A stretch of DNA of 53,870 nucleotides from a virus (IMGVR_UViG_3300037842_000514); one strand, 5' to 3'. Shown: positions 5,144-23,514, counted from the stretch's first letter. Numbers and translations: made by a program. Notes: generated by a model from the sequence alone, not told the origin.

Positions 5144-6063
5144 GGTTTTATAACTCCTAGTATTTCTATCATCATAGCCATAGTGTTAATTTCTTTATCA
5201 ACGACCACGACATCAGATTGTTCATATTTTGCTATAATTAATATAACTTCAGCGATATACCCTTTACCATAAGTATCAACACTATCGTATAACAGTCGAA
5301 ATAAATCTGCAAAATCTGTTATCTTACTATCAGCTAATAATTGCCTTATCGTGGTAAATGCTGATTTCTTATCTTGAGTTTGAATCACTTCCAATATCTT
5401 CAACTTGTAGTCGTTTTCAACAACGCTATGTTTATCTATAGACAATAACCCATTAATAGATTGACGTTGTAGTGAATTGATAATCCGTCTTATATCAGGA
5501 TACCCTGAATTGATTATCAAAGCTACATCATCTATACTATAATTGATATTCTCACTATCTAATATATTTGTCGAATGTATAGCTACTTCCCTTTTCGATG
5601 GTGGAATTGTTTGAAATGATTGACATCTACTTTGAATGGGATCTATAATACGCTCGATATAATTACAAGTTAATATAAATCTTGTATGTTTACTGAAAGT
5701 CTCCATTAAATTTCTTAACGCCGCTAGTCCTTGTGGTGTTATAAAATCAGCTTCATCTAATATAACGACTTTTAAATCTTTAAACCCAACAGATGATGCA
5801 AAACTTTTTATTTTAGTTCGTACTACATCTACACTATTCTCATCACTAGCATTAATGTACAAATAGTCACATTCAATATTATTAACGATTAATTTAGCGA
5901 GAGTGGTCTTACCAGTTCCGGCCTTTCCGTATAATAACAAATGCGGTAAGTCACCACTCTCAAGGTAAGCAGATACTTTACTTTTGAGATGATTATTCCC
6001 AATGTAAGTATCCAGTGTATTTGGCCGATACTGTTCTACCCATAATGTATGTTCAGTAGCCAT
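5140..6063 (-). CDS. clamp loader large subunit (RFC/T4 gp44-like AAA+)
   Basis: LWVEQYRP, GKAGTGKT (Walker A), ILDEAD (Walker B), QSRC. Confidence 0.93.
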   Translation of the reverse strand: MATEHTLWVEQYRPNTLDTYIGNNHLKSKVSAYLESGDLPHLLLYGKAGTGKTTLAKLIVNNIECDYLYINASDENSVDVVRTKIKSFASSVGFKDLKVVILDEADFITPQGLAALRNLMETFSKHTRFILTCNYIERIIDPIQSRCQSFQTIPPSKREVAIHSTNILDSENINYSIDDVALIINSGYPDIRRIINSLQRQSINGLLSIDKHSVVENDYKLKILEVIQTQDKKSAFTTIRQLLADSKITDFADLFRLLYDSVDTYGKGYIAEVILIIAKYEQSDVVVVDKEINTMAMMIEILGVIKP

Positions 6064-6064
6064 A

Positions 6065-6781
6065 TTAAGAATGACCCTGCTGAGCTACTAAATAGTACTC
6101 TGATTTAAAATCTCCAAGTTGAAAACTAATATGTAATAATCCACTATTAGATATTTCCATAATCCCTCCAGTACACTCTTTGTTAGCTATTAATATTTCC
6201 TTAAACAATTCAGCGTTAAATGATATATACTCAGGCATGTGTAATTCATTTGTGGATAACGCCATAGTAACTCTATTAGTGTTTGTTGTAGAATATCCAA
6301 TAACAAACTTCAAACCACCCCTATCCATTACAGTAAAAGTTGACGCATCTGGTAATGCTGATTTACCTCGTATAAAAGTTGTAGTAAAGTTATTAGTAAT
6401 ATCAACTCTAGTTTCAAACTCAGGCATATTCTTGAGTTTGGGTGGAGTTGAAATTATAGATAAATCTGCTAATATAAAATTGCAAGTTGAATTGGTATCA
6501 GAAAATGTTAGTGAGATGGGTTTGCCATTTATATCTACCACATCAATTTCCATAGAATTGTCAACTGTATTCAACAACCGTTGTAATTGACTAGTCGAGT
6601 AGACTCCAATATCTGCGTTACAAAACTTAAAATTATCAACTGACACGTTTCCTAGTAAAGATTTACTATCAGTAATAAATGACGTCGATAAAGTGTCACC
6701 TTTACATACCCATTTAACGCTATCAACATTCCCACCTAAATTGTACTTTACGATGAATTGTTCTAATTTATTTTTATCCAC
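6065..6781 (-). CDS. DNA sliding clamp (T4 gp45-like)
   Basis: Clamp-like sequence ending SEYYLVA; next to RFC. The ORF track starts at 6835, but GTG 6781, overlapping the upstream stop, is the more likely start. Confidence 0.75.
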   Translation of the reverse strand: MDKNKLEQFIVKYNLGGNVDSVKWVCKGDTLSTSFITDSKSLLGNVSVDNFKFCNADIGVYSTSQLQRLLNTVDNSMEIDVVDINGKPISLTFSDTNSTCNFILADLSIISTPPKLKNMPEFETRVDITNNFTTTFIRGKSALPDASTFTVMDRGGLKFVIGYSTTNTNRVTMALSTNELHMPEYISFNAELFKEILIANKECTGGIMEISNSGLLHISFQLGDFKSEYYLVAQQGHS

Positions 6782-14416: not shown

Positions 14417-15347
14417 TTAATTAGCGTAATCTTGATCATCGTTATCCCCAGCGATTGGTATTATCTCACAAGTGTCGTTATTACAAAACTTGTCGGGTTC
14501 AGCTTCTTCACCTTCAATACCGGCGAAGCTTAACTTTCCTAATTTCGAAAGCATTTTATTGTATTTTTTTTCATCAATTTCCTCATATGGCATTTGTCTA
14601 TAAGCCCCATACTCATGTCTCGGTAATAATGATATCCCTTTTAACTTGTATTGAAAATATTCAAGTACATGTGGTAGTTGTGTAGATTCAACTGCAGGAT
14701 TAAATGTTGCTGTACAACTTACTTGATTGTCTGCCCAATGTCTCTGTAAGAATGCTGCTAGGCTGAATTGTTCCCATATAGATAGTTCTCCTACAGTTCG
14801 AATTCCTTCACCAATATCAATTGGAACCTCAACAACTACTGTCGAATCTTCACTACCAAATGCTGGTTCTAAATTGTAGTTTGCTTTCTTTAACGACTCT
14901 ATCAATTCTGATTGTTTAGATAATCTCATTCGTCGTATATAAAATCTACTTTCCGGATAGTGCATTCCTGGAGTAGCTCCTACTAATAAACTAACAGTTC
15001 CAGAAGGTTTAATGCTACTCAACTTTATACTTCTTGGTACAGCTAACCAATCTGAGTACATCTTATCCCATTTCGTTAGCTCATTATACCCTTCTTCACA
15101 CCACGTTTTTAAAGAATCCAATCCCCTATTAGTAACAAATTGTGCTATACCACTCATCGATGTACCAATTCTTCTATTTCTCAGCATAACTCGATTGGTG
15201 TCAGGCCAGTGTGTTTTTCCTAATGTAACTGTTTTTGCATATAAGTATGCATACTTTAATGTCTTCTTATAATCTTCTAAGTCGTCGTGGTGGTGTGGGA
15301 AAGTTTCCACAAGACAACATAATTCATAAGATTCTAAACTTTGTTCG
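14417..15347 (-). CDS. nrdJ: class II ribonucleotide reductase, 3' exon (C-terminal part)
   Basis: Frame reads EQSLESYELCCLVETFP...RNRRIGTS...IKPSGTVSLL...C-terminal FCNNDTC; joins to 15523-15635 after intron removal. Confidence 0.9.
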
Positions 15348-15522
15348 CTTTTTACGGATTGTATCAGTAAACTTTCAATCTATAAGGTGGACTGTCGCAT
15401 CTTCATTAGAAGTTTCTCCGCTCAGTCTCTCACGCTGGCTTTACCCTTGCGCCCTGTCGGCGTTTCACTCGCCTTCCAAGTCAATCAGGAGAAATTTATA
15501 CTACCCCGGGACTTGTTAGTTA
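15348..15522 (-). mobile_element. 175-nt group I intron without an ORF
   Basis: The 5' exon ends in U (ACTGCCT) and pairs with IGS GGGTAGT (15500-15506) with a U.G wobble. P3 TTTCTCC/GGAGAAA; P7 GAGACTG/ACAGTC; P8 CTTC-TAAT-GAAG; terminal G. Removal restores the frame TGC CTC GAA CAA (C-L-E-Q). Confidence 0.85.
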
Positions 15523-15635
15523 AGGCAGTTGTGGATTAATATATTATTAGCCACAAAATTGTGATTATTTTCTACACTCAAATCGTATACGTCTTGATTT
15601 TTATCATGTAATATTGTTTTAAGCAATCTTCCCAT
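15523..15635 (-). CDS. split intein C-fragment (36 aa) plus the first extein codons of NrdJ
   Basis: MGRLLKTILHDKNQDVYDLSVENNHNFVANNILIHN/C with blocks F and G; GGAG RBS upstream; too short for the ORF track. Confidence 0.88.
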
Positions 15636-16668
15636 AAGATTTAATCTCCGTTAAATAATTGTTAATTGAACTAAAGTATTTTTCGATACTTTTTTTAGTA
15701 ATCCCAAAGGTTTTTGGAACAGCTTCAGTTTTATTTTTTCTCTCTATTATGATATTATTAATATCAGTAATCTCTTTTATGTTGTATAATTCAAGTAAAA
15801 CCCCATACTTTAACATTTTAGTTTTATATGAATTAATTGAACTATTTTTTGGTAATGGTTTTCGTGGTTTACCAATCAAATTATTGTATCTATTAGTGCA
15901 TCCATTCTTTTTACACGTTTTTCTATCGATATCGCTTACAATCCTGTATTCGAATACATCTCCACAAATAATACAATTAGATACTTTTATTGGATCAGTT
16001 ATATCCTTTCCTTCCCAAAATAATTTACTCTCTTCCTTGCGTTGTGCTGATATTATCTCCCGCCTTTTCATACCATCTGGTGTATTATAAAAAGCACGTA
16101 TAGATTTGCTAAGTCTATCAGTATATTTTTTATCAGATGCCCGTTCGGCTGTTTTTTTTCCAATTTTAAGTTTAGTTTCATCTGAAGATGTCGTGCCGTA
16201 TCTTGGATTGTTTTTACCTCTCATATCCACAGTTTTATGGTTTTTAATAGAAGCTTCAATCCATTCTTTAACACCATTTTCAAGTTTATATTTTTTAACT
16301 ATTTTGCTAATGTGTTTATCCCACACTACCAAATACCGTATTCCGATATTTCCAAACAATTTATTGTATTTATAATAATAATCCATAGCTTCTTTTTTAG
16401 AGCTTTTGACTTCTATAATTGTTCTAATTTTATCATTAACAATATGAAAAAAATCAGGCTTGTAACTTTTACCATCAAATTCGTATATTTTACTTTCATA
16501 TAAAAATGACATATTAGCTATATCCAACCATTTAGCAATAACAAATTCACATTTACTGCGTAAATAATATTTTTTATTATCTTTTGTTGTATAATACCCG
16601 ACATAACTTCTATGATTAGTATCACCTCTCTTAATTTTCCCATGTTTTTGTTCACAATATGTTTTCAT
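15619..16668 (-). mobile_element. free-standing homing endonuclease (TnsA-like PD-(D/E)XK with NUMOD3 and Zn-finger) between the intein halves
   Basis: LRSKCE...YE...YKPDF...IIEVKS; GKNNPRYG..SDETKLKIG; CIICG...C...C. Confidence 0.75.
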
Positions 16669-16701
16669 AATTCATCTCTTTTTAGTGGTTGTTTATCTAA
16701 T

Positions 16702-16710
16702 AATAAATAT
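16702..16710 (-). promoter_or_regulatory. putative late-promoter motif ATATTTATT before the endonuclease gene
   Basis: Same motif recurs 15-45 nt before starts at 22138, 37008, 40611 and 48317. Confidence 0.45.
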
Positions 16711-16746
16711 AATAGAATTAAAAAATAAACACTAAAATTAAAAGAA

Positions 16747-18141
16747 TTATGTTATTATTTTAATATTATCATCTTCAGTTAAATCTTTAGCTTCTACATA
16801 CCCCTTATTGGTTGTATAGACTTTATGGTCAGGGGTACAAGTAAGTTTATAGATATTTCCATCTTCTTCAATCTCTAACGTCATGATAGAAACATCCTTT
16901 CTGCTTAACCAAGCGTTAGTAATAACATTGTATTCTAATGATAGAGTATTTTCATTAAAAGTTAATGCTTTAATTTCTTCACCGTTTTTTACCAGTTCTA
17001 CAACTTCTTCAACGGTTAATTTACCTTTATCAGTATTAACTAATGTATCACCAACTACACATGGATTTCCACCAGCTACCCTATGGTCTTTATTATCACC
17101 ACCATTTTTCATACGAGAATACTTTCTCATATTATCTAACCACGCAATTCCAGGTTCACCATTATCTACTATTCGTTTACATATATCAGTATAATCCATT
17201 CCTAATTCAGCGAATACTGAGTTATTGGAAGTCCATCCGTAATCTTCCCTATGAGGGTTTTTCTTGTAATTCTTTAGATCTAAATATTCTTCTGAGTGTG
17301 GATCTCCAAATACAATCTCAGCTGTGCGCCTTACATTACCGGCCACTACACACTTACCAATCAAATTCATGATGTCCACAATTGTAGTTACTGTAATTGG
17401 TTGTCCTATATTGATGTCTAATATTTTTTTAATTTTATTATTAATTTCCTCTAATGGATCAGGACCACTACTAATTCCCCCAAATCCTTTAATGGGTTCT
17501 CCCAACCCTCTGATTAACGAGTAATCAAATTCTACATCTACAGTTCCTACGAAGTAGCTATCCAACACCATCTTTACAGATTCTACCCAACCTTCTCGTG
17601 TATCTGGAATCCGAAATACATTGGATGTTTGTGATAAGTTTAATTTGGGACCTTTAATAACAATCTCACCAGCACCTTTTGTATCGAAACCGACACCCAC
17701 TCCTAACATAGAAGCGTCCATTAGGAATGTGAATGGTTTAGATAAATCTTCCTTAATAGTCTTAGTTGAAACGAACGCACAATTGTTAAGTGCTGCGTAT
17801 AATTTCTTTTCTTCTGTTATAGCAGTTCCCATTGCCCATAACCCACGACCGGGTGGAAGGAATTTCATACTCCACATTCTCTCGTACATTTCTTGAGCTG
17901 AGTTTTGAGCTTGCCATGGATTCCAACCTAATTGGTGCTGTTCAATCCACTGCTTTTGCATATTGTAAGTACCTTCTACAACTCGTCTAATAGTTTCCCA
18001 CCATCTCTCATTTTTACCATTATCTTTGATACGGGAATATGTTCTCATATAAACTAACTCACCAAGACCATTGAAACCGAATGGTGGTTTTTTTCTTTTA
18101 TATTTATTTATAAATGATTCCGTTAAAACAAACTTATCCAT
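16747..18141 (-). CDS. nrdJ: class II (AdoCbl) ribonucleotide reductase N-terminal part fused to a split intein N-fragment (104 aa, 16750-17061)
   Basis: RTYSR, FLPPGRGLW, LNNCAF, GNVRRTAEI, GGNP|CVVGDT (block A), TCTPDHKVYT (block B), then a stop. Confidence 0.92.
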   Translation of the reverse strand: MDKFVLTESFINKYKRKKPPFGFNGLGELVYMRTYSRIKDNGKNERWWETIRRVVEGTYNMQKQWIEQHQLGWNPWQAQNSAQEMYERMWSMKFLPPGRGLWAMGTAITEEKKLYAALNNCAFVSTKTIKEDLSKPFTFLMDASMLGVGVGFDTKGAGEIVIKGPKLNLSQTSNVFRIPDTREGWVESVKMVLDSYFVGTVDVEFDYSLIRGLGEPIKGFGGISSGPDPLEEINNKIKKILDINIGQPITVTTIVDIMNLIGKCVVAGNVRRTAEIVFGDPHSEEYLDLKNYKKNPHREDYGWTSNNSVFAELGMDYTDICKRIVDNGEPGIAWLDNMRKYSRMKNGGDNKDHRVAGGNPCVVGDTLVNTDKGKLTVEEVVELVKNGEEIKALTFNENTLSLEYNVITNAWLSRKDVSIMTLEIEEDGNIYKLTCTPDHKVYTTNKGYVEAKDLTEDDNIKIIT

Positions 18142-18165
18142 GATTTACGTTCTCCATTAATTTAA

Positions 18166-19536
18166 TTATTCAAATCCAGTTGTAGTTTTAAAGTCTTTAT
18201 ATTTAGTCGCCAACGTCTTTCTAATAACATCATCTCTACTATCCATCTTTTTTTGTGCTATCTTACCACCGGCTGATAAATCCTCATATATATCTATCTT
18301 TCCAATATTAGTGTTCATATTCATCGGATATGTGATACCATCTAGGCCAAATCTATTTTTTATAACGTGTGCTCTTGCAGTATTGCTGATTTTATCATCA
18401 ACTTTTCTACTAATAGATATTATAAAATCCGCCGTCATGACTTTACTATAAGCTTCAGCTACTTTACTTGCATCGATAACATCTTCGTCGAGGGAGCTCC
18501 TGTTTGCTTGAGATGCTGTCCATATAGGACAGTCAATCTCTCCCGCTAATCCTCGTAAATCTTCATATATACTACCCAGTTGATGTCGCATTTCCTTATA
18601 ATTGCTAGTGTCTCTGAGTATGTCAGCATAATCTACTAACACTAAATCAGGATCAATACCTTGTAACTCCATCTGCTTTAAATGTGCTGCTAAAGTTGGT
18701 ACAGTTGCAGATCTAGTTGGATAGTATTTTATTACTAATTTTCCTGATATTGTGTTTATTTTCCGTTCAACTTCTTCTTTATGAAATTTAATATTCGCTG
18801 TTGGAATGCCTGATATTATAGTATCAAATCTCAAACCCACATAATTTTGATTCAATTCCAAAGTATAATAAACTACAGTTAATCCTTTTTTAATCCCATG
18901 AGCTCCTATCGACTGCAATAACCAAGACTTACCTATACCTGCAGGTGCTACTACAACTCCGAGTTCACCCTTACCTAAACCACCATCCATCAATTCATTA
19001 ATAGGATCCCAAGGAGTTTCTACAACATCTCTAGCAGAATTTGCTAATCTCTCATCCAACCCTTCAGTGTAATCGTGCCCTAAATCCCTCTCAGTTCCAG
19101 CCTTCATAGCTTCATCTATTATTTTTTTAATATCATCATATTTTCTGAGCTCTAATAAATTTACAGATTCTAGTATGGCATTTTTCAATACCTGATTCTT
19201 ACAGAATTCTATAGTTTCAGTCTTTACAAATTCTAAATCTGTAGACTCTATATATTTCCAAGCTTCCTTTAAATTCTCAATTACAGACACTTGTAGTATA
19301 TCATCATCCATTGCATTGATTTTAACTTTTAACACTTCAAGCGTTGGAGTTGTTTTATATTCGTGAAAATAATCTCTAATATTTGTAACTAAAAATCTAT
19401 TTGCATCTGAGTCGAAGTATTTTGATTCTAATATGTCAGATATAGTCTGAAAAAACTTCTTATCTAACAATAGAGATGTGATAATTTTAGATTGGAATGT
19501 TGGACCAAATTGTGTTAATGTTGTATTATTCCCCAT
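18166..19536 (-). CDS. DnaB-like replicative helicase (T4 gp41-like)
   Basis: APAGIGKS, VLVDYAD, WTASQANR, KNRFG. Likely start MGNN at 19536. Confidence 0.92.
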   Translation of the reverse strand: MGNNTTLTQFGPTFQSKIITSLLLDKKFFQTISDILESKYFDSDANRFLVTNIRDYFHEYKTTPTLEVLKVKINAMDDDILQVSVIENLKEAWKYIESTDLEFVKTETIEFCKNQVLKNAILESVNLLELRKYDDIKKIIDEAMKAGTERDLGHDYTEGLDERLANSARDVVETPWDPINELMDGGLGKGELGVVVAPAGIGKSWLLQSIGAHGIKKGLTVVYYTLELNQNYVGLRFDTIISGIPTANIKFHKEEVERKINTISGKLVIKYYPTRSATVPTLAAHLKQMELQGIDPDLVLVDYADILRDTSNYKEMRHQLGSIYEDLRGLAGEIDCPIWTASQANRSSLDEDVIDASKVAEAYSKVMTADFIISISRKVDDKISNTARAHVIKNRFGLDGITYPMNMNTNIGKIDIYEDLSAGGKIAQKKMDSRDDVIRKTLATKYKDFKTTTGFE

Positions 19537-19705
19537 ACAATAATCGTCCTCTCTCACTCTTTATTTTTTCCATTTTATTTTTTCTATAACGTGCAATCGC
19601 TTTGGCTCTAATTGTTTTTTTATTGCGCTCGTAATATTCCATTTGCCACTTTAATTGAGCTTCTTTCTTTTCTTCTTTAGTAATATATTTTCGTTTACGA
19701 CCCAT
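19526..19705 (-). CDS. 59-aa highly basic protein
   Basis: Manual translation MGRKRKYITKEEKKEAQLKWQMEYYERNKKTIRAK...; fills the gap and overlaps both neighbours. Confidence 0.6.
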   Translation of the reverse strand: MGRKRKYITKEEKKEAQLKWQMEYYERNKKTIRAKAIARYRKNKMEKIKSERGRLLYGE

Positions 19706-20762
19706 TATATTCTTTAGCTAATCTATTTAACTTAGACCACGATTGATTTAACCAAGATTCGAAATTGGGTATACCATTAAACATTCTATCCTTCATGAAT
19801 TCTAATTGGAAATGTGGTTTATTTAAGATAGGAACCTTCCCTCTAACTATATCATTGATCTTCAATTTTGCATTATTTGATATGTCAACTTCATGTAACT
19901 GCATTAATTTGTAATTTAGTTCTAATTGATCTTTAGAAGCTACAACATTTCTAAATATTTTCAATAAATCTTTATTCTTTTCTGAAAACTCTAAGAGGTC
20001 TTTGATATTAAATGCATTATTCTCATCTAAAATACCCGGAAATCTTTTCTTAATTGTTTTAAATCCTGCACCTTGTACTCCAGGAATATTATCTGATTTA
20101 TCACCTTCCATCACTCTACCCATCAGAAAATTTATGCATGGGATGCCATACTCTTCAAATAAATTGTCAGGCTTATATAACTTTTTCTTAGTAGGGCTCC
20201 ATACACTAATTCTATCATCTACCAATTGTAAAAAATCTTTATCTGAAGACATTAATATAATATTATTATTTGATTTGTTTAAAATTTGTTTAGTGATGTA
20301 AGCCATAGTATCGTCAGCTTCTATATTATCGATAGCTATAGTGCTTATAGGTAAAAACTCTAAATACTTTGATACCATCGATAATTGCATCATCATATTT
20401 TGGCGCTCATCAGCATGAGAATTAAAATTTGATACTCTATTGAGTCTAGATTTAACTTTTCTGTTAGCTTTATAATCTGGATACAATTTACGGCGACGGA
20501 CGGACCCACCCTTACCATCAAATACGATGATACATCGAGTGGGTCCTAATAATTTCACAGCATAACCAACTGATTTTAAAAAACCTACTATTCCCCCAAT
20601 GTGAACTCCATCTTCATTGAGAGTAGGTATAACGCTAAATACTCGTATAAAAGTATTTAATCCATCTATAATCAGTACTTTATCATTAATGTCCCCTGTG
20701 TCGGACTTCCCGCCATGTTTTTTTATTTCTTCTAATATCGATAAATATTTATCATTACTCAT
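19695..20762 (-). CDS. 5'-3' exonuclease/flap endonuclease (T4 RNase H-like)
   Basis: IIDGLN, FDGKGG, YKANR, EADD, SSDKDF, GDKSDNIPGV.G.G.KT. Confidence 0.92.
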   Translation of the reverse strand: MSNDKYLSILEEIKKHGGKSDTGDINDKVLIIDGLNTFIRVFSVIPTLNEDGVHIGGIVGFLKSVGYAVKLLGPTRCIIVFDGKGGSVRRRKLYPDYKANRKVKSRLNRVSNFNSHADERQNMMMQLSMVSKYLEFLPISTIAIDNIEADDTMAYITKQILNKSNNNIILMSSDKDFLQLVDDRISVWSPTKKKLYKPDNLFEEYGIPCINFLMGRVMEGDKSDNIPGVQGAGFKTIKKRFPGILDENNAFNIKDLLEFSEKNKDLLKIFRNVVASKDQLELNYKLMQLHEVDISNNAKLKINDIVRGKVPILNKPHFQLEFMKDRMFNGIPNFESWLNQSWSKLNRLAKEYNGS

Positions 20763-21186
20763 CGCCGGTCACATCTTCAGTAAATTGAACATCATCTATA
20801 CCCAAATTTGCAGTTTTATATTGCAACACCATTTTATCACATATCAAATCATAGAGATAGTTTTTTAGTCCATCAACTTCAGCTAGTTTTAATTCAAACT
20901 CCTTTGATAGAAATTTCACATCTTTACCATTGTAGTTTACAGTATACCACGCTCCACCTTGTTTGATCAAATTATGCTCTTTTAGCACTGTCAACCATCC
21001 ACCGTAATTATCAATTCCTTTATCAAAGTACATATCATAATCTGCATGACGTAGTGGTGGGCCTAATCTATTTTTAATAACTTGAGCTCGACATTTCATT
21101 CCTAGTACGTTCTTCTTAGCGGTATCTTTAATTTGACCCATATTTTTTAATCTAAGTCTAGTAGATGCGTGGAATGGTAATGCTTT
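20755..21186 (-). CDS. recA: RecA/UvsX recombinase, 3' exon
   Basis: KALPFHASTRLRL...KNRLGPP...GAWY; the upstream ATG in the ORF track (21237) lies inside the intron. Confidence 0.88.
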   Translation of the reverse strand, partial: KALPFHASTRLRLKNMGQIKDTAKKNVLGMKCRAQVIKNRLGPPLRHADYDMYFDKGIDNYGGWLTVLKEHNLIKQGGAWYTVNYNGKDVKFLSKEFELKLAEVDGLKNYLYDLICDKMVLQYKTANLGIDDVQFTEDVTGDE

Positions 21187-22379
21187 CAATTTTGTTATCG
21201 TATAATCATTTAAATTATACATCTTATAATTTCTCATAAGTTCGGACTATATCTTTACCAAAATTTTGAATTAATTTTAATACATTCTTCTCTGTTATAT
21301 CAGATCCAAATATACGACATACGTTATATCCACATTCTTTTATTTCATTCAAACGAATATTATCTTTATCCCATACTGATTGAGCTGTTACTACTCTATT
21401 TCCTGGATATTTAATTAATTCATCTGAATCGTATTTCTTTGGATTTGCATGCCAATAATCACCATCCACTTCAAATACTAAATTGAAGTCTGGTAAATAA
21501 AAATCGACATAATATGCTTTTATTTTATCGTATTGATGTATATAGTTTATACCGCTATCTTCCAAAATACTTTTTACTTTTAATTCAATTTTAGTATTTC
21601 TAGAACCGCCAGGTATTTTATTTTTATATTTCCAATTCTGTAATCTTAGATCAGCTTCATCTTTTCCATATTTTTCAAACCACCTTTGCCAATTAGATTT
21701 TCCATAATGGTGATGAGCTGAACCTGTAATTGAACTCCACATTATACTTTCTGGATGATCGTTTACGTATTCTTTCATCACTTTACTGTGATTTTTTCTA
21801 TATTCAGCACTTTGAACTGCTTTTTTTACAGCATCCTTTCTTTTCTGAGAATGTCTACTTATGTCGTTCATTTTACGGCAATGGTTTTTATTACCATCAG
21901 AATAAATCCATTTTGCAAATTTATCGAAATGTGCGTTGGAAATCATTTTTGAATTTGGAAATGATAACTTATATTCATCAGTTGTCATTTTATGTTTAGT
22001 TTTTAAATGTGTATTTGTGATTGATTTAAAATCTGTATTACACAATTCACACTTTATTAATTCACTATTTTGGTATTCAGCGCTCGTGTTATTTTCATCT
22101 TCGTTATACATTTTACTCTCCATTATATCTTTATACATATAAATATAATGAAATGGGAAAACTTTACCCAATTTTTGTATATTAGTTTGAAGATTACTCA
22201 TATTAGTCTCTGAACCTTATTCTCATCACTGAGAGTCTTGGCTGCTGATTGTCCAATCCTACTTTTTTCAAACCGTCACGATTGTCATTACTAACTGCGT
22301 TGTGGTAAGTTAGGCTATCAGGAGTTTCCAGCAATTCACCGAATGTTTTATAGTGGAGGCAAAACATTACTTACGCAAT
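21187..22379 (-). mobile_element. group I intron (1193 nt) in recA carrying a homing endonuclease gene
   Basis: Exon AGTGGTGGT pairs with IGS GCCTCCACT (22352-22360). P GAATTGCTGGAAA, Q AATCAGCAGCCAAG, R GGTTCAGAGACTA (22204-22216), S AAGATATAGTCC (21244-21255), terminal G at 21187. Splicing yields TTSGG|KALPFH. Confidence 0.92.
21224..22111 (-). CDS. intron-encoded Vsr-like (EDxHD) homing endonuclease with an N-terminal C2H2-like finger
   Basis: CELC...H...H; YYVDFY...FEVDGDYWH...DKD. GGAG RBS before ATG 22111 (the ORF stays open up to 22201). Confidence 0.8.
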   Translation of the reverse strand: MYNEDENNTSAEYQNSELIKCELCNTDFKSITNTHLKTKHKMTTDEYKLSFPNSKMISNAHFDKFAKWIYSDGNKNHCRKMNDISRHSQKRKDAVKKAVQSAEYRKNHSKVMKEYVNDHPESIMWSSITGSAHHHYGKSNWQRWFEKYGKDEADLRLQNWKYKNKIPGGSRNTKIELKVKSILEDSGINYIHQYDKIKAYYVDFYLPDFNLVFEVDGDYWHANPKKYDSDELIKYPGNRVVTAQSVWDKDNIRLNEIKECGYNVCRIFGSDITEKNVLKLIQNFGKDIVRTYEKL

Positions 22380-22751
22380 ACCACCACTCGTTGTGTTATG
22401 ATTTACATATCCATTTGCAATATAATTTTCATTATCTTCTACGGATATATCAACAACATTTATTTCATCGTCCACTTTTTTAGCATCTGGATGATTTTTT
22501 AGATGCATGTAGCTATTATCACTACATTTTACTCTATGATTTCCTGTACCTTTTAAATCTCCCAATTTATAATGAGATTTAACTTTAGGTTTAACAAGAA
22601 AATCAAGAATTTGTTTATACTCAACATCACCATCATTATTGACTGATTCTACTTCCAATCCCATACCACTTAAATCTAATGATTCTGGATTATTGTAGTT
22701 CATATCAAATAATTCAGTAAGTTGAGCCATACTAACTGTTTTTTCTATCAT
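22380..22751 (-). CDS. atypically split intein C-fragment (119 aa, 22395-22751) plus a 5-codon RecA exon TTSGG
   Basis: Block B TGNH, block F VVDISVEDNENYIANG, block G HN/T. Confidence 0.87.
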
Positions 22752-23514
22752 TGGTATTCTCCTGTGTCATTTGTTGTAATTTATTATGATATTCACCAAA
22801 AAAAGGTGAATCTTCATCGTATCGTATCTTAATATTAGTTGTTTCAGGATCAACACACCATGGATCTCCAAAGGACACACCTAATTTCTGACGTAGTTGA
22901 TTAGTAAACACTAAAGCTATTTTCTGCCGTCCTATCATTTGAGTAATCTTTCTTAACGCTTTTGAGATAATAATAGCCTTTGCTGTAGCCCAACCATCTT
23001 TATCAAAATCTGCTTCTAATTCTACTTTAGTAGTTGCTGCCGCTAACGAATCCACTAAAATTGTAACTAATCTATCTTTATCGGATTCTCTAACTTTAGT
23101 AACGATTTCTTCAATAGCACTAAATATATCTTCTACAGTTTCCAAATGTAGATAGAGCATATTAGACACATCTACCCCAATAGCTTCCAAAAACTGTTTG
23201 CTAACTGACGTTTCAGTATCCACATAAACTGCCACTCCACCCTTTTTCTGCGTTTCAGTTAGAATATGTGCTCCTAATAGAGATTTTCCACTGGATTCTA
23301 ATCCAGTAATTTCAGTGATTCTACCTACTGCAATACCACCATCTTTCCGATTCGATATTGCTAAATCTAACATCGATGATCCTGTTGAGATAAAATCGCT
23401 AATATCTGTAGGTGTACTATCTGTTCCATCTAGAAAGTATGCAACTTTCATATCTTTAAATTGTTTATTTATATTATCAGCCAAGACATTAGCTAATTCG
23501 TCTCTTATAGACAT
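22732..23514 (-). CDS. recA: RecA/UvsX N-terminal part fused to a short intein N-fragment (41 aa, 22735-22857)
   Basis: GLESSGKS, ILVDSLA, FTNQLRQK.GV.FGDPW|CVDPETT (intein block A), then a stop. Confidence 0.92.
   Translation of the reverse strand: MSIRDELANVLADNINKQFKDMKVAYFLDGTDSTPTDISDFISTGSSMLDLAISNRKDGGIAVGRITEITGLESSGKSLLGAHILTETQKKGGVAVYVDTETSVSKQFLEAIGVDVSNMLYLHLETVEDIFSAIEEIVTKVRESDKDRLVTILVDSLAAATTKVELEADFDKDGWATAKAIIISKALRKITQMIGRQKIALVFTNQLRQKLGVSFGDPWCVDPETTNIKIRYDEDSPFFGEYHNKLQQMTQENTNDRKNS

Follow-up and report, generated by a model that had tools for sequence, protein, structure and literature searches.

Predicted split inteins with group I-type introns immediately downstream in nrdJ and recA of an uncultured marine phage

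Introduction

Inteins and group I introns are usually viewed as separate parasites, each with its own homing endonuclease. Here we describe two genes in which elements of both kinds stand a few nucleotides (nt) apart: nrdJ, encoding a class II ribonucleotide reductase (RNR), and recA, both in the viral DNA stretch IMGVR_UViG_3300037842_000514 (53,870 nt, hereafter the window), whose source is an uncultured marine phage. Each gene carries a predicted split intein, a group I-type intron just downstream of it and a single putative homing-endonuclease gene, and each locus is likely to be one compound mobile cassette, with mobility shown for nrdJ. As read from the alignment of a filled and an empty allele, the nrdJ composite was transferred in one step between diverged phage backbones. 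The composite is well supported for nrdJ, and for recA it is supported by linkage. All genes between 14.4 and 23.5 kb lie on the minus strand, and the region of interest (15348-22857) runs from the terminal G of the nrdJ intron at 15348 to the first base of the recA intein at 22857.

Results

A fractured nrdJ gene with an intron 5 nt beyond the intein

The nrdJ gene is laid out as N-extein, N-terminal intein half (IntN), nuclease open reading frame (ORF), C-terminal intein half (IntC), micro-exon, intron and exon 2, and is thus found in three coding pieces. Lengths of proteins are given in amino acids (aa), and a caret in a motif marks a point of insertion.

17062..18141, minus strand: nrdJ N-extein, 360 aa, ending GGNP (Pfam RNR_Alpha and RNR-II insertion domain)
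16750..17061, minus strand: nrdJ IntN, 104 aa, starting CVVGDTLV, with Cys1 and a TCTPDH block B (Pfam Intein_splicing)
16749..16747, minus strand: stop codon of nrdJ IntN (sequence)
15619..16668, minus strand: ORF of 349 aa between the intein halves, a free-standing putative homing endonuclease (Pfam NUMOD3)
15528..15635, minus strand: nrdJ IntC, 36 aa, ending LIHN (Pfam Intein_splicing 129-155; sequence)
15523..15527, minus strand: nrdJ micro-exon TGCCT, 5 nt (sequence; uninterrupted alleles read NPCLEQ)
15348..15522, minus strand: ORF-less group I intron of nrdJ, 175 nt, terminal G at 15348 (core pattern and covariation)
14417..15347, minus strand: nrdJ exon 2 (C-extein), starting C GAA CAA (sequence)

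The N-extein shares 75-83% aa identity with uninterrupted relatives. The micro-exon consists of the catalytic Cys codon, which also encodes the +1 nucleophile of the intein, and 2 nt of a Leu codon, while exon 2 makes up the C-terminal two fifths of NrdJ and has no start codon of its own ahead of the conserved motif. At both loci, the Pfam RNR, RecA and intein-splicing domains fall in the expected pieces. Ligation of the exons at the predicted junction, AACTGCCT joined to CGAACAA, together with removal of the intein, would give the doubly spliced product GGNPCLEQSLESYE, which equals that of uninterrupted relatives exactly; 76 uninterrupted alleles, reading GGNPCLEQ(S/T)LESYE, agree fully with the spliced product NPCLEQSLESYE.

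The locus has the features of a split intein in a fractured gene, namely separate halves, Cys1, a TxxH block B, a terminal HN, a +1 nucleophile and an intervening nuclease ORF, and we infer that the two halves form a split intein removed by predicted protein trans-splicing. IntN is 63% identical to that of another composite locus (L112) and 42-47% identical to the IntN of the fractured RNR genes L335 and L337. The nuclease ORF, whose 3' end is overlapped by the ATG of IntC, has an N-terminus that looks PD-(D/E)xK-like by eye and a weak PHROG match to 'endonuclease'. Its counterpart at this position in L112 is 56% identical to it, and the ORF inside the NrdJ-1-like fractured gene of L335 is 39% identical.

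Transfer of the nrdJ composite as a block

A metagenome pattern scan for the junction of nrdJ micro-exon and intron matched two contigs, both composites, and contained no intron-only allele at the exact TGCCT^ site. One of the two, L413, forms with the viral contig L003 the single filled/empty pair compared here. L003 is uninterrupted at the NP^C site (GGNPCLEQS). The two are 99.98% identical over the 4807 nt that end with the last codon before the site, and 98.9% identical downstream, over the part of the locus that begins 26 nt inside exon 2. From intein start to intron end, L413 and the window composite differ at 3 of 1714 nt, and their nucleases agree at 349/349 aa; the surrounding exteins of L413 and the window are 76-84% identical upstream and 80% identical downstream of nt 130 of exon 2.

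In a three-way alignment, the 60 nt just upstream of the site contain 9 diagnostic positions, and L413 agrees with L003 at 9/9. Between the TGC codon and nt 87 of exon 2 it agrees with the window, at 19 informative positions, with one of L003 type at nt 69, and from about nt 129 of exon 2 it reverts to L003 sequence. The donor-like tract is about 55-87 nt long, and the downstream switch falls in a stretch of 38 nt identical in L413, L003 and the window. Because L413 carries this block with its donor flank on an L003 backbone, we conclude that intein, nuclease gene, micro-exon and intron moved in one gene-conversion event. On the evidence of the alignment, the pattern is a classic homing footprint with asymmetric co-conversion, and it shows the co-transfer that defines trans or collaborative homing: an element without a nuclease, a neighbouring nuclease gene and a co-converted flank.

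A third backbone (L098/L112/L414), whose exteins share 70% aa identity with those of the window, has the same nrdJ composite. Rare codons near the site (CCA TGC CTC ... AGT) are shared by the window and the L112 lineage, whose flanks show 91% versus 74% identity in one span of 15 codons; this similarity would fit a co-conversion footprint and is only suggestive.

A compact group I intron whose guide reads intein codons

The elements of the nrdJ intron were assigned comparatively.

15506..15500, minus strand: internal guide sequence (IGS)
15494..15488 with 15419..15413, minus strand: P3
15427..15423 with 15394..15390, minus strand: P7
15412..15401, minus strand: P8

A core pattern of 28 nt, drawn from the window and from the RNR gene gap of Roseobacter phage CRP-118, is matched by at least 119 IMG/VR viral loci. 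In an alignment of 55 distinct copies, 99.2% of the cells in P3, P5, P6, P8 and the pseudoknotted P7 are paired, compared with 37-52% in slid controls whose partners were shifted by 1-3 columns. Over 15 pairs there are 229 two-sided changes, compared with 20-34 in those controls. P4, most of P6 and four of the five P7 pairs (4/5) are invariant, P4 and part of P6 being fixed by the search pattern itself. A single-sequence fold of the intron was no better than shuffles (z = -0.33). Because it combines a covarying P3/P7 core with a U.G pair in P1 and a terminal G, we assign the insert to a compact family of group I ribozymes. The comparative evidence that it is a group I intron is strong, and self-splicing is predicted.

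P1 is the helix ACUGCCU/GGGUAGU, 7 base pairs long, which places a U.G pair at the splice site. One strand of its two distal pairs, A-U and C-G, is supplied by the AC of the AAC (Asn) codon that ends the intein. The calculated energy of this duplex is -9.5 kcal/mol. For a TGCCT allele that has no intein the value would be -5.6 kcal/mol, about 4 kcal/mol weaker than with the intein codon, and the best duplex of the guide with the consensus empty allele (-4.9 kcal/mol) is out of register. The pairing also occurs in L098, with a C-G variant. The sequence-only reading had proposed that P1 rests partly on the intein Asn codon and that the intron has adapted to the intein-containing allele, and these energies bear it out. 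The usual insertion point of the family lies 4 nt upstream, at AAT CCG T^GC, and the guide there matches AAUCCGU; therefore, the window copy appears to have been retargeted to a site that is best formed only beside the intein.

Many members of the nrdJ-type family (loci L083-L201), which is invisible to Rfam 15, lie in RNR genes at AAT CCG T^GC, and several copies hold an ORF in P8 whose start looks GIY-YIG-like by eye. The window copy has no P2. The Azoarcus intron, at about 205 nt, is longer than the 175-nt window copy.

The recA composite

In recA, the intein precedes the intron by 15 nt and the nuclease gene lies within the intron.

22858..23514, minus strand: recA N-extein, 219 aa, ending FGDPW, L2 loop (Pfam RecA profile positions 8-200)
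22735..22857, minus strand: recA IntN, 41 aa, block A only, an atypical split (sequence; homologous short IntN in L282, L284, L285 and L322)
22395..22751, minus strand: recA IntC, 119 aa, with block B (GTGNHRV), ending VNHN (Pfam Intein_splicing)
22380..22394, minus strand: recA micro-exon ACA ACG AGT GGT GGT (TTSGG), 15 nt, whose last 9 nt form P1 with the IGS at 22360..22352
21187..22379, minus strand: group I-type intron of recA, 1193 nt, terminal G at 21187 (5'-domain family and covariation)
21224..22201, minus strand: ORF of 325 aa within the recA intron, a Vsr-like (EDxHD-type) putative homing endonuclease (Pfam Vsr, DUF559 and MTES_1575; PHROGs)
20755..21186, minus strand: recA exon 2 (C-extein), starting AAA GCA = KALPFHAS (Pfam RecA profile positions 206-262)

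The N-extein is 84-90% identical to 80 uninterrupted relatives, and no start codon precedes the conserved motif in exon 2. Ligation at the predicted junction, GGTGGT^AAAGCA, would lead to the product GDPW-TTSGG-KALPFH, which is found letter for letter in 79 uninterrupted alleles. The intein is split between blocks A and B, so that IntC, with its own GGAG and an ATG overlapping the IntN stop, holds B, F and G. This arrangement is conserved among homologous ORFs, and 17 stand-alone homologues of IntC have the same ends, starting M(I/L)EK and finishing NHN-TTSGG. A contiguous relative (L289) shows that the two parts correspond to one intein fold. The short IntN and long IntC thus point to an atypically split intein, for which we predict trans-splicing.

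The intron belongs to a family with 43 IMG/VR members, and 20 pairs covary in the 5' domain of 38 sequences; this domain shares 78% identity with an intron-like gap in the capsid gene of Vibrio phage 1.232.O. P1 is formed by AGUGGUGGU/GCCUCCACU with U.G at the splice site, and splicing to the terminal G at 21187 restores the reading frame. P1 covaries with the micro-exon, being AGU/ACU here and AGC/GCU in L285 (exon AGC, IGS CCGCU). P9 and P9.1 covary among the recA copies by eye. The ORF (978 nt) sits between the P7 strands, and P3', P8 and P7' are assigned by eye only. With this qualification, the insert is regarded as a group I intron, and its splicing is predicted. The encoded protein scores 27.2 bits against Pfam Vsr (cut-off 27) and contains the motif FEVDGDYWH and an N-terminal segment resembling a Ros/MucR-type zinc finger; its last 10 or so codons overlap the intron core. 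It is 51-64% identical to the ORF of the same intron in L282, L285 and L322, and a phmmer comparison with the solved I-Bth0305I domain gave no match.

In L284 the ORF is largely deleted: the recA intron (5709-6134) measures about 426 nt, with two fragments left of the Vsr-like ORF. This looks like the stage of nuclease degeneration in the homing cycle, with intein and intron persisting.

In both genes, the spacing and micro-exons described by the sequence-only reading (5 nt in nrdJ, 15 nt in recA) hold to the base. It had also placed a single nuclease at each locus, outside the intein; the number stands, and the wording on position needs a correction for nrdJ, where the ORF lies between the intein halves in a fractured-gene layout.

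Both introns have an in-frame stop two codons past the 5' splice site (CT^T AAC TAA at 15522-15511; ATT GCG TAA at 22379-22371). An early in-frame stop in T4 introns keeps ribosomes off the ribozyme core. Translation of unspliced RNA would yield IntC with a tail of 3 or 7 aa, a potential dead-end partner for trans-splicing.

Distribution and linkage of the elements

IMG/VR holds more than 500 relatives of each gene, and the nearest 80 nrdJ and nearest 80 recA loci were examined. At the NPC site, 76 of the nrdJ loci are uninterrupted, three carry an unrelated contiguous intein and none has this split intein or intron; the unrelated intein, of about 350 aa, occurs alone in L016, L017 and L067. 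Neither recA element occurs in the nearest loci (0/80), and the L2 site is uninterrupted in these 80 as well as in L335 and L338. The full nrdJ composite is present in the window, L413 and L098/L112/L336/L414, where the L112-type composite is 63% (IntN), 56% (nuclease) and 58% (IntC) identical to that of the window. The recA composite is present in the window, L282/L283, L285, L322 and L284, the last with its nuclease ORF mostly deleted. In L287/L288 a Vsr-like nuclease gene occupies the point at which the recA intein is split, and the intron is absent. The intron is also lacking from the class I RNR loci L338, L340 and L341, whose fractured split intein comes with a nuclease and has its IntC joined directly to the C-extein. 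We found no intron-only recA allele, and the recA intein was carried by no cultured phage.

For the recA intein, a full HMMER search of 1.8 billion representatives was pooled with earlier clusters. The proteins nearest to the window IntC (P0001-P0005) are 81-88% identical to it. Single-protein locus scans with the nrdJ nuclease and with recA IntC gave no match; alignment-based scans succeeded. The IntC proteins fall into 25 clusters that stop 1-11 aa past the micro-exon, the signature of an intron, 24 that are fused to the C-extein and 23 that are contiguous. For most clusters this signature was read from protein ends and not from DNA; five recA composite alleles were verified on DNA. In the IntC tree, 19 of the 25 signature clusters share one clade with the window and end right after TTSGG, and the signature requires about 6 changes, compared with 21 for shuffled labels. 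It occurs in 25 clusters of split inteins and in none of the 23 contiguous ones (0/23), a difference that is not significant given only about 4-6 independent origins. In the extein tree, the window falls within a well-supported clade of empty alleles, and the other composites form a clade of their own.

Among close relatives, then, the elements are all-or-none, and the co-travel proposed by the sequence-only reading is supported, directly for nrdJ by L413/L003 and for recA by co-inheritance only. Its survey of intein-only, intron-only and double alleles comes out otherwise at deeper divergence, where the elements occur apart. So the inteins appear to be older and often alone, and the composite to have arisen a few times and then stayed linked. 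The unit is accordingly a derived, tightly linked composite and not an obligate ancestral one.

Two broader proposals were rejected: that the recA intein never occurs without the intron, as the HMMER search found about 46 intein-only clusters, and that both composites travel together between genomes, as an L112-type contig has the nrdJ composite and an uninterrupted recA.

Distant recA IntC ORFs (P0020, P0027, P0038, P0050, P0051, P0066) stop after (T/S)(T/V)(S/P)GG with different tails (ELLASHAGV, ECYAS, WN...), which hints at other introns at the same GG^ site in intein-bearing alleles.

Other insertion sites

A second nrdJ site, GNVRR^TAEIVF, is uninterrupted in the window. L003 (3229-4683) and L413 (3054-4508) carry there a fractured split intein with a nuclease-like ORF of 317 aa, PD-(D/E)xK-like by eye, and L112 (2021-2539) a contiguous mini-intein. 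The recA Walker A loop is a third intein site (TGLE(Q/A)^C...HN^SGKS), with none in the window; a mini-intein is contiguous there in L285 (9048-9449) and L289 (about 2546-2902), and the one in L284 (4079-4792) is split after about 13 aa, with a small intervening ORF. The window helicase (18166..19557) is uninterrupted. Related phages have inteins in DnaB/gp41-like helicases (L003 1897-2367, ...FANGIYSHN^SSLEED; L413 about 230-800), and the helicase of L284 (7629-12028) is broken by two large insertions.

Discussion

A shared nuclease for two kinds of element

We propose that each composite would be removed at two levels, the split intein from the protein by trans-splicing and the group I intron from the RNA, with a single nuclease seated between the intein halves in nrdJ and inside the intron in recA. 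The 349-aa protein would cut empty nrdJ alleles near the NPC codons, and repair of the break from a composite donor would copy both elements together with some flanking exon. They would be copied together because a micro-exon of 5 nt cannot serve as a homology arm, so that usable homology begins only in the N-extein on one side and in exon 2 on the other. The element lacking a nuclease, in nrdJ the ORF-less intron and in recA the split intein, would hitch-hike. In recA, the Vsr-like nuclease would mobilise the intron that encodes it, and the split intein, which lies 15 nt upstream, would be dragged along. Under this scheme the initiating cut would be made by the resident nuclease, and the recA composite would move like the nrdJ composite; what recA offers is linkage. 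Expression would proceed in order through RNA splicing, translation and protein trans-splicing, which would restore the active site (NPC-LEQ) in NrdJ and the L2 loop in RecA; both splicing reactions are expected to work. The loci with a nuclease gene at the split point of the recA intein (L287/L288) suggest that the atypical split may have been created by a nuclease gene later lost; the domain found there is 32% identical to that of the window recA intron nuclease.

A stronger form of this proposal, which we put forward tentatively and would not yet favour, is that intein-intron composites are recurrent, interlocked two-level mobile elements of marine phages, with the nuclease in either partner and the intein locked in by the dependence of P1. 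Because P1 of nrdJ depends on intein codons, an allele from which the intein alone had been precisely lost would splice the RNA of an essential gene less well, and the micro-exon would be too short for separate gain or loss of the two elements.

Alternative explanations

Several results weigh against a single-nuclease cassette, and we consider them here together with the explanations that they could favour. Some concern the identity of the parts. Rfam (Intron_gpI), at the gathering threshold and at E<=10, gave no group I match in the window, in the 8.6-kb region or in an isolated 216 nt around the nrdJ intron, and none in the recA intron; the nrdJ intron family seems to lie outside the diversity of the Rfam seed. 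Sequence searches of PDB returned nothing for the nrdJ nuclease ORF and, for the recA ORF, only a weak match to the Ros zinc finger (E = 0.22), and so connected neither with a homing endonuclease that has been characterised.

Others concern the independence of the two elements. Fractured nrdJ genes in which IntC runs straight into the C-extein, with no intron, exist at NP^C (L337) and one codon later, at the published NrdJ-1 position (L335). The recA L2 site can hold a contiguous mini-intein (L289) or a split intein (L286) alone, and on well-supported branches the intron signature has been gained or lost at least twice. In CRP-118 and many others, the nrdJ-type intron stands alone within the Cys codon, 4 nt upstream of its position in the window. 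Such alleles would be expected if a hyper-conserved hot spot had been invaded twice, independently, by elements with their own nucleases or by reverse splicing, so that adjacency is incidental and no mobility is shared. Catalytic motifs do attract inteins and introns alike (PMC2814812), some of the introns in the same Cys codon of other RNRs carry a GIY-YIG-like ORF as judged by eye, intein-only alleles are frequent, and the composite must first have formed by two events. Even so, L413 gained, or L003 lost, all parts jointly with an exon flank, at 99.8% identity to a copy in a diverged (76-84%) backbone, and the approximately 160 close relatives include no single-element intermediates. We therefore consider two unconnected invasions unlikely as an account of the present composites.

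It is also improbable, somewhat more so, that the composite is ancestral and vertically inherited, with patchiness produced by joint precise loss through gene conversion from empty alleles and with L003 as a loss derivative. With one pair to read, the difference between L413 and L003 could formally be a loss instead of a gain. In recA, the parts of the composite (51-64% aa identity between the window and L282/L285/L322) are no closer than the exteins (52-67%), a divergence that fits old vertical linkage as well as homing, and there was neither a filled/empty pair nor a co-conversion footprint in the flanks. For nrdJ, however, the L413 composite and about 87 nt of exon 2 are nearly identical to those of the window despite the far more diverged window backbone, and a near-identical block in diverged backbones requires recent horizontal movement of that block. 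An ancestral composite would, moreover, still have both elements behaving as one unit.

Finally, an artefact, either a chimeric assembly of L003-like and window-like phages in L413 or introns that are mere spacers between separately translated pieces, is very improbable: the downstream switch of L413 does fall within the 38 nt common to all three sequences, but at the upstream junction an extein of L003 type abuts the intein with only 8 nt shared with the window flank, too few for an assembler to join, the composite recurs in independent collections (L098, L112, L336, L413, L414), and in both genes exon 2 is without a start codon and the micro-exons hold indispensable codons.

Significance and comparison with known systems

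If the cassette reading is correct, protein-splicing and RNA-splicing elements are joined in one single-nuclease cassette twice in one genome, and trans or collaborative homing extends across the divide between RNA and protein. This offers a possible explanation for the persistence of ORF-less introns and of split inteins without a nuclease, and it suggests a route by which nuclease genes could shuttle between inteins and introns. The system is also compact, with a 175-nt ribozyme whose guide reads intein codons and an IntC of 36 aa, and the atypically split recA intein (41 + 119 aa) may serve as a tool for protein ligation. Two abundant families of phage introns, moreover, are missed by Rfam.

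Fractured genes, trans or collaborative homing, the intron and intein of phage SPbeta and a Vsr-like nuclease in a recA intron are already known. The literature searched contained no account of a group I intron lying within a few nt of an intein, of a guide that reads intein codons or of the joint movement of such a cassette.

Fractured genes at the NrdJ-1, NrdA and gp41 loci consist of a split intein with a free-standing endonuclease gene between its halves (PMC2677866). The layout described by Dassa et al. (2009) is that of the window nrdJ, whose IntN and IntC are 42-56% identical to those of L335/L337. The NrdJ intein of PMC2677866 lies one residue downstream, after NPC, with no adjacent intron described, whereas that of the window lies at NP^C with an intron 5 nt further on.

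The nrdJ composite resembles trans or collaborative homing in that an element without a nuclease is co-converted from the break made by a neighbouring nuclease, the outcome that L413/L003 displays. The cyanophage psbA intron with F-CphI is an example of collaborative homing. In phage T4, MobE mobilises a defunct nrdB intron by trans homing (PMC2790892), a precedent for hitch-hiking without a nuclease. The composites differ from such cases in that a protein-level and an RNA-level element share one nuclease, at a distance of 5-15 nt and not of hundreds, and in the window recA the roles are reversed, with the nuclease held by the intron and the split intein riding along.

Accounts from 1998 by Lazarevic and by Derbyshire and Belfort reportedly place the intron and the intein of the bnrdE gene at separate sites, each with its own history. 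In Bacillus phage SPbeta, this one RNR gene thus combines an intron and an intein (cited in PMC3653736); as far as the account given there extends, it describes no shared mobility, split intein or micro-exon.

For recA, the nearest counterpart is I-Bth0305I (PMC3239194), an EDxHD/Vsr-like nuclease with N-terminal DNA-binding modules that cuts recA at the FGDP codons of the L2 loop; in Bacillus phage 0305phi8-36 it is encoded by a group I intron of that gene. The window recA ORF, a putative Vsr-like nuclease with a zinc-finger-like N-terminal segment, is likewise encoded by a recA intron; the sequence relation is weak. The Bacillus intron stands beside the FGDP codons, at about the position of the window's intein, whereas the window intron is 15 nt downstream and, in the sampled loci, always after the intein. 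AceL-TerL and VidaL UvsX/T4Lh are examples of atypical intein splits that leave a very short N fragment. The window recA intein, split between blocks A and B, resembles them in layout.

For neighbouring inteins in haloarchaeal MCM, co-homing into an empty allele is inefficient and phylogenetically unsupported (PMC10643990). There, two inteins each bear a nuclease, whereas the window nrdJ has one nuclease, a spacing of 5 nt and a documented joint transfer.

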